This document shows, piece after piece, positions 3,001-9,000 of a DNA stretch of 9,055 bases. Position 1 is the first letter of the stretch. The number at the start of each line of letters is the position of its first letter. A program made the position numbers. Source of the stretch: a virus (taxonomy: Duplodnaviria > Heunggongvirae > Uroviricota > Caudoviricetes); the IMG/VR virus record IMGVR_UViG_2690316273_000018, positions 1-9,055 of that record. One strand, 5' to 3'.

Positions 3001-6000
3001 GCCATGTCGGAGGATGACGTCCGGCCGGAGGCAATGCGTCGTTTTGAACTGATGGTGGAAGAAGCGGCGCGTCACGCAGAGGAGGCGAAGAAGAATGCCG
3101 GAGAGGCGGAGACATCAGCGAGGAATGCCGGCATATCAGCCAGTCAGGCAGAAGAGAGCGCTGCAAATGCTGACACTTCAGCAGGGGATGCATCGGAGTC
3201 AGCCCGGCAGGCGGCAGAAAGTGCAGCCGCTGCAAAGCAGTCAGAGGAGGCGTCCTCGTCCTCGGCCTCTGCGGCCGCTCAAAAAGCCAGTGAGTCATCA
3301 CAAAGTGCAGCAGATGCTGAATTGTCAAGAAAGACGGCAGAAAGTGCAGCCGGTAATGCAGCCAGGGATGCAACGACCGCAACAGAAAAAGCCCGGGAGT
3401 CAGCAGAAAGCGCACAGTCAGCGGAACAAAGCAGGATAGCGGCGGAAGAGGCCGTAAACCGAATCCCCACCGTGGTGGGACCTCCCGGGCCAAAGGGGGA
3501 ACAGGGGCCCGCGGGTCCTCAGGGGCCGAAGGGTGATAAGGGAGAGCGCGGTGACACCGGCCCTGTCGGGGCAACCGGCGAACGGGGACCGGCAGGTGAT
3601 GCTGGTCCGGCAGGCCCGCAGGGGCCGAAAGGTGACATGGGAGAGCGGGGAGAGACCGGTCTGACGGGAAATGCAGGTCCACAGGGTCCAAAGGGAGATA
3701 CCGGTGCGGCAGGCCCGGCAGGCCCACAGGGACCGAAAGGAGAAACAGGTGCGGCTGGCCCGGTGGGGGCAACCGGACCTCAGGGACCGAAGGGCGACCC
3801 GGGGGAGACACAAATNGTGCTGACCGGAAGTGATGACGGTCGCCACAGCAACACGTCTCTGGCGTGGGGGGCTGGCGTGCAGTTTAACCCGACCGAATCC
3901 GTGGCCATTGATATTGCTTATGAAGGCTCCGGCAGTGGCGACTGGCGCACTGACGGTTTCATCGTGGGTGTCGGTTATAAGTTCTGATTAGCCAGGTAAC
4001 ACAGTGTTATGACAGCCCGCCGGTTCAGGCGGGCTTTTTTGTGGGGTGAATATGGCAGTAAAGATTTCAGGTGTACTGAAAGACGGCACAGGAAAACCGG
4101 TAGAGAACTGCACCATTCAACTGAAAGCCAGACGGACCAGCAGCACGGTGGTGGTGAACACGGTGGCCTCTGAAAATCCGGATGAAGCCGGTCGTTACAG
4201 CATGGACGTTGAGTACGGTCAGTACAGCGTCATTCTGTTGGTGGAAGGATTCCCGCCGTCACATGCCGGGACCATCACCGTGTATGAAGATTCTCAACCC
4301 GGTACGCTGAATGATTTTCTCGGTGCCATGTCGGAGGATGACGTCCGGCCGGAGGCACTGCGCCGTTTTGAACTGATGGTGGAAGAGGTGGCGCGTCACG
4401 CTGAGGAGGCGAAGAAGAATGCCGGAGAGGCGGAGACGTCAGCGAGGAATGCCGGCATATCAGCCAGTCAGGCAGAAGAGAGCGCTGCAAATGCTGACAC
4501 TTCAGCAGGGGATGCATCGGAGTCAGCCCGGCAGGCGGCAGAAAGTGCAGCCGCTGCAAAGCAGTCAGAGGAGGCGTCCTCGTCCTCGGCCTCTGCGGCC
4601 GCTCAAAAAGCCAGTGAGTCATCACAAAGTGCAGCAGATGCTGAATTGTCAAGAAAGACGGCAGAAAGTGCAGCCGGTAATGCAGCCAGGGATGCAACGA
4701 CCGCAACAGAAAAAGCCCGGGAGTCAGCAGAAAGCGCACAGTCAGCGGAACAAAGCAGGATAGCGGCGGAAGAGGCCGTAAACCGAATCCCCACCGTGGT
4801 GGGACCTCCCGGGCCAAAGGGGGAACAGGGGCCCGCGGNNNNNNNNNNNAGTTTAACCCGACCGAATCCGTGGCCATTGATATTGCTTATGAAGGCTCCG
4901 GCAGTGGCGACTGGCGCACTGACGGTTTCATCGTGGGTGTCGGTTATAAGTTCTGATTAGCCAGGTAACACAGTGTTATGACAGCCCGCCGGTTCAGGCG
5001 GGCTTTTTTGTGGGGTGAATATGGCAGTAAAGATTTCAGGTGTACTGAAAGACGGCACAGGAAAACCGGTAGAGAACTGCACCATTCAACTGAAAGCCAG
5101 ACGGACCAGCAGCACGGTGGTGGTGAACACGGTGGCCTCTGAAAATCCGGATGAAGCCGGTCGTTACAGCATGGACGTTGAGTACGGTCAGTACAGCGTC
5201 ATTCTGTTGGTGGAAGGATTCCCGCCGTCACATGCCGGGACCATCACCGTGTATGAAGATTCTCAACCCGGTACGCTGAATGATTTTCTCGGTGCCATGT
5301 CGGAGGATGACGTCCGGCCGGAGGCACTGCGCCGTTTTGAACTGATGGTGGAAGAGGTGGCGCGTCACGCTGAGGAGGCGAAGAAGAATGCCGGAGAGGC
5401 GGAGACGTCAGCGAGGAATGCCGGCATATCAGCCAGTCAGGCAGAAGAGAGCGCTGCAAATGCTGACACTTCAGCAGGGGAGGCATCGGAGTCAGCCCGG
5501 CAGGCGGCAGAAAGTGCAGCCTCAGCAAAGCAGTCAGAGGATGCGTCCTCGTCCTCGGCTTCTGCGGCCGCTCAAAAAGCCAGTGAGTCATCACAAAGTG
5601 CAGCAGAAGCTGAATTGTCAAGAAAGACGGCAGAAAGTGCAGCCGGTAATGCAGCCAGGGATGCAACGACCGCAACAGAAAAAGCCCGGGAGTCAGCAGA
5701 AAGCGCACAGTCAGCGGAACAAAGCAGGATAGCGGCGGAAGAGGCCGTAAACCGAATCCCCACCGTGGTGGGACCTCCCGGGCCAAAGGGGGAACAGGGG
5801 CCCGCGGGTCCTCAGGGGCCGAAGGGTGATAAGGGAGAGCGCGGTGACACCGGCCCTGTCGGGGCAACCGGCGAACGGGGACCGGCAGGTGATGCTGGTC
5901 CGGCAGGCCCGCAGGGGCCGAAAGGTGACAGGGGAGAGCGGGGAGAGACCGGTCTGACGGGAAATGCAGGTCCACAGGGTCCAAAGGGAGATACCGGTGC

Positions 6001-9000
6001 GGCAGGCCCGGCAGGCCCACAGGGACCGAAAGGAGAAACAGGTGCGGCTGGCCCGGTGGGGGCAACCGGACCTCAGGGACCGAAGGGCGACCCGGGGGAG
6101 ACACAAATCCGTTTTCGTCTGGGGCCGGCGAGCATTATTGAGACAAACAGCAATGGCTGGTTCCCGGGTACAGATGGTGCGCTCATCACCGGACTGACCT
6201 TTCTTGACCCCAAAGATGCCACACAGGTTCAGGGGCTGTTTCAGCATTTGCAGGTCAGGTTTGGTGACGGGCCGTGGCAGGATGTTAAGGGGCTGGATGA
6301 AGTGGGCAGTGATACAGGCAGAACAGGAGAATGACATGAACGTACTAAAAAAACTTATGCAGCGTCTGTGCGGGTACGGAAAGCATGATGACCGTGAACA
6401 CGGGGAGTTACTTACAGCACAACTGCGTCTGGGGCCGGCAGACATCCTGGAGTCAGATGAGAATGGTATTATTCCGGAGCAGGCCAGGGTAATCACGCAG
6501 GTGGTGATACTGGATGCGGATAAAAAGCAGATACAGTGTGTGGTAAGACCGCTGCAAATCCTGCGTGCTGACGGGACGTGGGAAAATATTGGCGGGATGA
6601 AGTAACCCGACAGCTTCACAAAACCGGAGTCCGGCTCCGGTTTTTGTTGTCATGTCCGGTGGATGTTTGTTAAGAAAGCAAAGATGGCAAAACTGCTGGA
6701 GGTTTTGTGGTTGAGTATGCCAATATAATTAATAGATTAAAGAGTTAGTTGTGAAGAAAATATGGATAAACAGGACGACGAATGCTTTCACCGATAAGGA
6801 CAACTTTCCATAACTCAGTAAATATAGTGCAGAGTTCACCCTGTCAAACGGTTTCTTTTGCAGGAAAGGAATATGAGTTAAAGGTCATTGATGAAAAAAC
6901 GCCTATTCTTTTTCAGTGGTTTGAACCTAATCCTGAACGATATAAGAAAGATGAGGTTCCAATAGTTAATACTAAGCAGCATCCCTATTTAGATAATGTC
7001 ACAAATGCGGCAAGGATAGAGAGTGATCGTATGATAGGTATTTTTGTTGATGGCGATTTTTCAGTCAACCAAAAGACTGCTTTTTCAAAATTGGAACGAG
7101 ATTTTGAAAATGTAATGATAATCTATCGGGAAGATGTTGACTTCAGTATGTATGACAGAAAACTATCAGATATTTATCATGATATTATATGTGAACAAAG
7201 GTTACGAACTGAAGACAAAAGAGATGAATACTTGTTGAATCTGTTAGAGAAAGAGCTGAGGGAAATTTCAAAGGCGCAGGATTCTTTGATTTCTATGTAT
7301 GCAAAGAAAAGAAATCATGCATGGTTTGATTTCTTCAGAAATTTAGCCTTATTAAAAGCAGGAGAGATATTCAGGTGCACATATAATACAAAGAATCACG
7401 GTATTTCATTCGGGGAGGGGTGTATCTATCTTGATATGGATATGATACTTACAGGTAAGCTTGGTACAATATATGCTCCTGATGGAATTTCAATGCATGT
7501 GGATCGTCGTAATGATAGTGTAAATATTGAAAATAGTGCAATAATTGTTAACCGTAGTAATCATCCTGCTCTACTTGAGGGACTTTCTTTTATGCATAGT
7601 AAAGTAGATGCTCATCCATATTATGATGGTTTGGGGAAAGGAGTTAAGAAATATTTTAATTTTACACCATTACATAATTATAATCATTTTTGTGACTTTA
7701 TTGAGTTTAACCACCCTAATATAATCATGAACACAAGTCAGTATACATGCAGTTCATGGTAAATGAATTTGATATAGTTTATTTTGTTGTAATAAATGAT
7801 TTGCAGGGTATTAGATATAAACATGAAAATTCCCTCATTACAGTCCAACTTCAACTTTTCCGCCCCGGCAGGATACTCTGCTCCCATTGCTCCTAATCGT
7901 GCTGAAAATGCCTATGCGGATTACGTTTTGGATATAGGTAAGCGAATACCACTTTCCGCAGCAGATTTAAGCAACGTATACGAAAGTGTAATACGCGCCG
8001 TCCATGACAGCCGTAGCAGGCTTATCGATCAGCATACAGTCGATATGATCGGCAACACTATACTTGATGCTTTGAGCCGCTCATAAACTTTTCGTGATGC
8101 CGTAAGCTATGGCATTCATATTCAGGATGCTGCAGATCGCAACGGATGAAGAGACATCGTTGTTGACAGTCTGGAAGAGGTATCGGGTGTTACTGAACCG
8201 TGTTGATACGTCAGTATCTCCAGATTTCGAGGGCCAGTAATACCTGATTTATAGTTCGTAAACGTTCGTCTGACGGGATGCTGGAAGGATGAATGAGTTG
8301 CCAGATACTCAAAAACAATAGTTAATTTCCAGTTTTTTGTTGTCATGTCATGGTGATGTTTGTTAAGAAAGTAAAGATTGATTCATTTTGAAGGTTGAAA
8401 TGTATGCTATCACCATCTTCTGTAAATTTGGGGTGTTCATGGAATTCTTTAACCAGAAACCTGACTTTGCCTGATAATCGTGTTTTATCCCTCTGTAAGG
8501 GATGCTGCCGCTCACTCTGATAATGGGGCGCAAGTAAAGGTTAGCAACAGAACATATCGCGTTGTTTTAAGTGATAATAGGTTTTGCGTGACAAGAGAGA
8601 GTCATAGTGGATGTTTTACTAATATGCTGTATAGACTGAGATGGCCTAAGGGAGAGATCACCAGAAAAATTGAGGCTATGCTGAATTCATCGACAGTGAG
8701 CACGACTATAGAAAGAGGATCTGTTCGTTCGAACAGACCTGATTTACCTCCAGTGGATTATGCGCAGCCGGAGTTACCGCCAGCGGATTATACTCAGTCA
8801 GCGTTGCTGAGGCTTAGCAACAACAAATCACCCGTGCTAGGTAACGTTATTGGTAAAGGTGGTAATGCTGTCGTGTATGAAGATATGGAAAATACAACAA
8901 AAGTGTTGAAGATGTTTACTATATCTCAAAGCCATGAAGAGGTGACAAGCGAAGTTCGTTGTTTCAACCAGTATTATGGTGCCGGGAGTGCAGAGAAAAT

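Follow-up and report, generated by a model that had tools for sequence, protein, structure and literature searches.

The locus described here raises the question of what a long, perfectly regular collagen-like run is doing inside the tail fibre gene of an Escherichia coli prophage. The run lies in a stretch of 9,055 nucleotides (nt), hereafter the window, which makes up positions 1 to 9,055 of the IMG/VR virus record IMGVR_UViG_2690316273_000018 (Caudoviricetes). We consider it very likely, with a probability of about 0.9, that the block is the collagen triple-helix segment of a side tail fibre of the EPclA type (EHEC prophage collagen-like protein A), carried by a lambdoid prophage of attaching-and-effacing E. 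coli. This fibre family has been described and biochemically characterised since 2012, and, as judged from its sequence, the block would be the already known collagen stalk of such a fibre.

Translation of the open reading frame (ORF) from 5015 to 6334 on the (+) strand showed an uninterrupted (G-X-Y)37 run, GPPGPKGEQ...GDPGET, at nt 5771-6103. The sequence-only reading had placed a block of about 37 perfect triplets at these coordinates, which proved exact. The frame is open from 5015, and ATG 5021 was taken as the start, following RefSeq relatives in which the orthologue is annotated with 437 amino acids (aa). The coding sequence thus spans 5021-6334 (+) and encodes a complete 437-aa protein, in which the 37 triplets form residues 251-361 (111 aa). 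Because glycine accounts for only 7.7% of the protein outside the block, chance (~0.077^37, or ~1e-41) was ruled out as the origin of 37 in-phase glycines. The block matched Pfam Collagen (PF01391) above the cutoff (E=3.5e-18), and the protein also contained phage_tail_N (PF08400; E=3.4e-69, profile positions 1-133 of 134, aa 3-135) and Phage_fiber_C (PF06820; E=3.6e-36, profile positions 1-64 of 64, aa 365-428), with the residues of phage_tail_N counted from 5015.

These matches define four domains, all on the (+) strand. PfN (5021-5425) is the N-terminal tail-attachment (collar) domain common to lambda Stf. It is followed by PCoil (5426-5770), an Ala/Ser-rich segment of ~115 aa (residues 136-250 are rich in Ala, Ser and Glu) that we read as a trimeric coiled-coil stalk from its likeness to the PCoil of EPclA and from a predicted helix (see below). 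Col (5771-6103) holds the 37 triplets, and PfC (6104-6331) is the C-terminal globular domain. The claim that the block separates an Stf-like N-terminal part from a globular C-terminal domain was therefore borne out, with PF08400 and the Ala/Ser-rich stretch before it and PF06820 after it.

EPclA, e.g. ECs0844, ECs2717 and Z0982, was defined by Ghosh et al. (2012, PLoS One 7:e37872, PMC3368898) as a 437-aa protein composed of PfN, a PCoil of 116 aa, a Col of 111 aa and PfC, and is encoded in many copies per O157:H7 genome. Our results showed that the window fibre is 92% identical to ECs0844 of the Sakai prophage Sp3 over 436 residues, gap-free, with 37 triplets in both proteins. Its architecture and lengths are those given in Table 2 of PMC3368898 (437/116/111 aa, with PCoil at ~115 aa here), its residue preferences at the X and Y positions and its GP(Q/P)-GPK-G(D/E) motif are the same, and it occupies the same genomic slot, i.e., J, lom, fibre, 89-aa PfC ORF, nleB2, nleC and nleH. 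The differences are allelic substitutions only, together with the host, which is another E. coli lineage. Hence, PF08400, a PCoil of ~116 aa, a single 111-aa Col, PF06820, identity above 90% and a place in a lambdoid tail module, the features by which EPclA is recognised, were all found in the window protein. For the flanks, the closest complete genomes were Z1323HEC0423 and 14EC007, whereas the complete fibre copy was closest to that of O55:H7.

The properties of such a fibre are known from recombinant EPclA (rEPclA) of Sakai (PMC3368898), which is a trimer that dissociates upon denaturation. Its Col has the circular dichroism spectrum of collagen and forms a true triple helix that melts cooperatively with a Tm of 42 °C; its PCoil is a trimeric coiled coil melting at ~52 °C; and its PfC, which brings about trimerisation, nucleates the triple helix anew once this has melted. 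Under the electron microscope (EM), the protein is a dumbbell with a hinged stalk, the triple helix being part of the stalk between two globular ends. By analogy with these near-identical proteins, three chains of the window fibre would associate via PfC and the Ala/Ser-rich coiled coil, and PfC would nucleate the folding of the 37 triplets into a rigid rod, which would be ~32 nm long, since collagen rises 2.88 Å per residue (PMC3368898) and Col has 111 residues. The rod, hinged to the coiled coil, would hold the PfC head off the tail, and PfC is presumed to be the distal receptor-binding end. At the other end, PfN would anchor the fibre in the collar around the tail tip, which in lambda is formed by the N-termini of Stf (PMC12617516); residues 1-93 of the window protein matched the Ur-lambda Stf collar chain (PDB 9E7M/9MGH) with E=4.5e-53 and ~90% identity. 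For PfC, the search of PDB sequences found no solved structure at E <= 0.01. This copy of the fibre is probably assembled into virions. The sequence-only reading had called the block both a trimerisation and a spacer element. The second role agrees with a stalk in a trimeric EPclA-type fibre, but Ghosh et al. ascribe the nucleation of trimers to PfC and the coiled coil, and not to the collagen block.

Several points weigh against this interpretation. The strain is known from sequence alone, and the biochemistry comes from the recombinant protein of Sakai. An AlphaFold2 (AF2) monomer model of the whole protein, made from a 34-sequence alignment, had a mean pLDDT of 49.9; the coiled coil was its sole confident part (a continuous helix at aa 98-244, with pLDDT mostly 64-90 from ~aa 110), and Col and PfC, at ~30, received no structural support from it, although such values are expected because the fibre is an obligate trimer. 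A phi24B preprint argues that a related C-terminal domain does not bind BamA. Finally, the prophage may be defective, as nleC is truncated in the window and the closest complete genome has J annotated with a frameshift.

The last point leads to the alternative that the prophage is defective and its fibre gene a relic in decay, with a collagen block that has no present function in this strain and length changes that are neutral damage. In the same complete genome nleC and nleH are annotated as pseudogenes, several homologues of the fibre are frameshifted or truncated (e.g. P0098, P0110 and P0114-P0115), and defective EPclA* genes were also listed by Ghosh et al. (PMC3368898). However, the ORF is intact here, near-identical genes are present on records of Shiga toxin (Stx)-converting phages, and the reading frame and Gly phase were kept in every length change examined. 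Furthermore, comparison with Sakai ECs0844 gave dN/dS values of 0.10 for Col and of 0.12-0.33 for the three remaining domains, i.e., 0.10-0.33 over all four, a clear sign of purifying selection on the sense frame. We therefore regard decay as unlikely and retain the interpretation of a side fibre of the EPclA type.

Col is 71% G+C, compared with 56% in the remainder of the gene; 49% of its X positions are Pro, with Asp/Glu also found at X and Lys/Arg at Y, and Y is rich in A/T/K/Q. The commonest triplets are GPK, GPQ and GPA, and the GP(Q/P)-GPK-G(D/E) motif recurs within the block. The nucleotide motif GGNCCNNNNGGG, in which the block had been said to be rich, was counted 20 times in the window, where 1.8 occurrences were expected, and 0 of 200 shuffles reached this count. 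All 20 sites lie inside three collagen blocks (the present one and those of two incomplete fibre copies described below), 9 of them within 5771-6103. As an independent DNA signal GGNCCNNNNGGG was rejected; it is the coding image of Gly-Pro-X-Gly(GGG). On the antisense strand, two of the three frames lack stop codons throughout the block, and in one of these 25% of the residues there are proline. This produces a proline-rich ORF of 286 aa (5244-6104, -), and a second long antisense ORF lies at 5711-6619 (-). The Pfam search of the long antisense and alternative-frame ORFs gave no match, and the sense frame is under purifying selection, with a dN/dS of 0.10 in the block; they were therefore rejected as genes and are artefacts of Gly and Pro codon composition, which agrees with the sequence-only reading of the proline-rich ones.

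Comparison with other known fibres and collagen-like proteins places the window protein more narrowly. With lambda Stf it shares the N-terminal 93 residues (~90% identical), the gene position after J and lom, and the inferred role of an accessory trimeric side fibre attached by a collar. In contrast, Stf has no collagen, and its gp37-like shaft and tip require the Tfa chaperone, whereas the window fibre has a shaft of coiled coil and collagen, a PfC tip and a PfC-only ORF as its neighbour. In line with this, the Pfam scan of the window fibre found neither PF03406 nor a gp37-like domain, and the next gene is the PfC-only ORF rather than tfa, of which a pseudogene remnant lies further downstream. 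EPclB, the fibre of short-tailed Stx2 phages (Sp5 ORF67, or ECs1228; 933W L0121; phi24B gp61), has the same PfN, PCoil, collagen and PfC modules and is also followed by an 89-aa PfC-only ORF. It differs in its length of 645 aa, in having two collagen domains (157 and 114 aa) split by a Pf2 repeat, in belonging to a podovirus tail, and in being essential for the infectivity of Sp5; immuno-EM has located EPclB (Sp5 ORF67) at the tail end.

Gly-X-Y triple helices that are unhydroxylated and nucleated by a flanking globular trimerisation domain are also found in Scl1/2 of Streptococcus and BclA of Bacillus, and one might suppose that the window protein is likewise a bacterial surface collagen mimic that acts on the mammalian host and is no part of a phage. 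The gene does adjoin the type III effector genes nleB2, nleC and nleH in a pathogen, and BclA was among the matches of the PDB sequence search. However, the PDB collagen matches reflect Gly-X-Y composition only, and the proteins are unrelated outside the Gly-X-Y region. Scl and BclA are cell-wall or exosporium proteins with a signal or anchor, and their nucleating domain is another one (N-terminal in Scl2), whereas the translated fibre sequence has no LPXTG motif, begins with the PfN collar domain instead of a signal peptide, and is encoded in the stf position after J and lom. A role as surface mimic is thus highly improbable, and the evidence favours a phage side fibre.

The sequence-only reading had also described the block as prone to slippage and recombination, and had proposed that its triplets be counted in related genes, with a constant length speaking against a variable spacer. 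In the 120 best cluster representatives, the homologues whose block is flanked in the same way (VNRIPTVV ... QIRFRLGP) carried 4, 5, 8, 14-16, 19-21, 25, 26, 32, 36 or 37 triplets, and EPclD-type relatives, which have the N-terminal flank in common but another C-terminal domain, carried 9-38. The range of 4-38 triplets among homologues shows that the length is not invariant. Ghosh et al. list 21, 26, 27, 37, 38 and 48 triplets (PMC3368898). In the closest viral contigs 37 triplets was strongly modal (n=15), followed by 27 (n=3), 38 (n=2) and 36 (n=1).

The DNA of 14 length-variant alleles was then fitted to the window allele, each as a single event. All 14 fitted one in-frame change by a multiple of 9 nt at internal repeats, with the Gly phase kept, and in this respect the claim of a slippage- and recombination-prone block was upheld. 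Eleven shorter alleles represent eight distinct event types, each one in-frame deletion, and their sizes of 9, 90, 99, 162, 198, 261 and 297 nt are without exception divisible by 9. At the junctions of the large deletions (90-297 nt), 2-11 nt are identical, and part of these junctions lie inside imperfect repeats, 18-28 nt long and 70-84% identical, whose translation reads GPQGPKG(D/E), GPVGAT or G(D)xGER. Most deletion alleles end at the five internal copies of the repeat encoding GPQGPKG (5807-5827, 5906-5926, 5969-5989, 6014-6034 and 6068-6088, +). In the 8-triplet allele, for example, there are 0 mismatches over 162 nt relative to the window allele, except for the loss of 261 nt at the 8-nt identity CCTCAGGG. 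The two 19-triplet forms differ from each other in their junctions, as do the two 26-triplet forms, and equal lengths must therefore have arisen more than once. The 9-nt deletion is a change in the copy number of a perfect tandem repeat of CGGCAGGCC, found by TRF at 6000-6018 (+; 2.1 copies), of which the 36-, 37- and 38-triplet alleles have 1, 2 and 3 copies, respectively (alleles L032, L023 and L027). Such 1/2/3-copy variation is a classic signature of slipped-strand mispairing. Over the population, the length of the stalk would vary by in-frame loss and gain between repeats encoding GPQ-GPK-G(D/E), and slipped mispairing or short-homology recombination is the likely process behind it.

Permuting the synonymous codons of the block gave an expected length of 13.9 ± 2.8 nt for the longest exact nucleotide repeat, which in fact measures 11 nt, and an expected number of 14.1 repeated 9-mers, of which the block has 14. 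The nucleotide repeats are thus just what the protein repeats impose, and there was no sign of selection against recombinogenic repeats, nor of recent duplication. No Chi sites were found in the window. One could go further and view the GPQ-GPK-G(D/E) repeats and the 9-nt unit as a built-in device for length variation, a contingency-like locus that would yield stalks from ~3 nm (4 triplets) to >40 nm (48 triplets), with selection matching the reach of the fibre to the thickness of the O-antigen or capsule and 37 triplets as the optimum for common hosts; we offer this tentatively, as a doubtful extension. The nucleotide-level map itself, which traces all length variants examined to in-frame changes at internal repeats, adds modestly to published work. 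PCoil (5426-5770) was also found to be length-polymorphic, with in-frame deletions of 28, 41 and 63 aa at residues ~159-221 (seen in the comparison with P0001, P0012 and P0038). A loss of 41 aa cannot be divided by seven, which goes against the heptad rule of Ghosh et al.

The window contains one complete fibre gene and two incomplete ones, arranged head-to-tail over 2722-6334, each with the lom 3' end, and joined by N. A second full collagen block of 37 triplets, which differs from 5771-6103 by one base, lies in copy 1 at 3478-3810 (+). Five nt past its end is a single N (3816), after which the sequence goes back into the lom 3' end. In copy 2, only the first 37 nt of a third block (4802-4838, +), recognised by translation and by its motif sites, precede a run of 11 N (4839-4849), which begins at the base where the first GPQGPKG repeat opens and is again followed by the lom 3' end. 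Both junctions were identified as scaffold junctions by sequence comparison. The complete genomes of Z1323HEC0423 and 14EC007 matched window positions 1-3815 at 99.4-99.9% and 6336-9055 at 99.9%, and in both of them exactly 227 nt, equivalent to window positions 6109-6335, separate the two matches. Since the complete genomes join 1-3815 to 6109-9055, the true locus has one fibre gene, and 3817-6108 is interposed material from a paralogous contig. A real tandem triplication of the fibre gene was rejected for the same reason, as both genomes run from 1-3815 straight into 6109-9055.

This misassembly raises the question of whether the length polymorphism, like the three copies, could be a product of short-read assembly in which repeats were collapsed or mis-joined. 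The window itself is mis-scaffolded, its N junctions falling at the edges of the block, and draft contigs ending close to lom are the source of many short alleles; for the tripling we accept this explanation, as complete genomes hold one copy. For the length alleles it is very unlikely. The 15- and 19-triplet alleles are on chromosome-size contigs of 5.3 Mb and are therefore not artefacts of draft assembly; the finished Sakai genome has 27-triplet copies (PMC3368898); and the longest exact internal repeat (11 nt) is below typical assembler k-mers, which makes repeat collapse unlikely. The variation in length is thus best taken as natural.

The sequence-only reading had seen the instability of the block as fitting the assembly breaks. 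The breaks do sit at the block edges, and the first GPQGPKG repeat, the site of one of them, is where deletion alleles diverge. They are better explained, however, by some ten near-identical paralogues per genome that diverge at these edges, and 37 triplets is strongly modal. The breaks fit contigs that end where multi-copy paralogues diverge, which is consistent with the earlier remark but is not proof that this copy is unstable. Copy 2 is a mosaic, its 5' part matching copy 3 and its coiled-coil part matching copy 1. Copies 1 and 3 (2722-3815 and 5015-6108) have ~31 differences in the first 594 nt, which cover PfN and the first half of PCoil, and a single difference in the last 500 nt, the whole collagen block included; this pattern points to recombinational mosaicism or to homogenisation of the 3' part among paralogues.

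According to Pfam and RefSeq relatives, the neighbouring genes are, in order, the C-terminus of J (the tail-tip protein), Lom, the fibre, the 89-aa PfC-only ORF, nleB2, a truncated nleC and nleH. The locus is thus the tail end of a lambdoid prophage in attaching-and-effacing E. coli, and Sakai ECs0844 is likewise followed by nleB2, nleC and nleH. The stand-alone PfC-only gene (6336-6605, +) starts 2 nt past the fibre stop, and its PfC is 37% identical to that of the fibre. It was present downstream in 7 of the 8 variant loci fetched (L002-L008), in one case after an insertion sequence (IS): in the complete E. coli chromosome CP077473.1, an IS3-family transposase lies between the fibre and PfC-only genes (L006, 2661-3874). 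The equivalent ORF68 of Sp5 belongs to the late genes that are not essential, and a role as a store of C-terminal variation has been suggested for it. In the +1 frame, counted from that of the fibre, the sequence stays open from 6204 past the fibre stop and on into the PfC-only gene (6204-6605, +). One homologue, P0011 (494 aa; L009, 1501-2985), is a frameshift fusion in which the PfC end of the fibre is swapped for the downstream PfC; it may be natural or may result from an error in sequencing.

Further downstream, nleC is cut to 96 codons (7796-8120). At 8120/8121, where the stretch 8121-9055 begins, similarity to O55:H7 falls from 99.5% to 82%, and ~1.2 kb is missing. The annotation of Z1323HEC0423 shows the same nleC/nleH arrangement, with the tfa pseudogene remnant and a frameshifted nleH. 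A direct repeat of 45 nt (89% identical) lies upstream of nleB2 (6641-6685) and of nleH (8334-8378), and may mark a cassette boundary common to both or serve in the regulation of the effector genes.

Of the 5,426 complete E. coli genomes, 693 had full-length matches to the fibre; a single genome held as many as 18 matching places, and the whole set roughly 17,000. Full-length copies that are ~99% identical occur on Stx1a- and Stx2c-converting phages, where the annotation of phage 2851 reads side tail fibre. The search of genome contigs returned, apart from E. albertii, mostly generic Gly-X-Y matches from unrelated bacteria and was uninformative on the fibre family. PfN-like sequences with 76% identity were also seen in draft genomes of Leeuwenhoekiella, Kitasatospora and Neobacillus (L092, L093 and L094; match at 1501-1980 in each), one of the contigs having ~1x coverage; these probably represent contamination by enterobacterial phage or lambda-vector DNA.

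Altogether, the finding of the collagen block is a correct annotation, not a discovery. The block marks the side-fibre stalk of the lambdoid prophages on which pathogenic E. coli carries genes for Shiga toxin and type III effectors, and side fibres affect the adsorption and spread of such phages. As the window shows, short-read assemblies break and are mis-joined at exactly these positions when fibre genes are present in several copies of different collagen length. The natural length alleles are a ready set for asking whether the length of the fibre affects adsorption.

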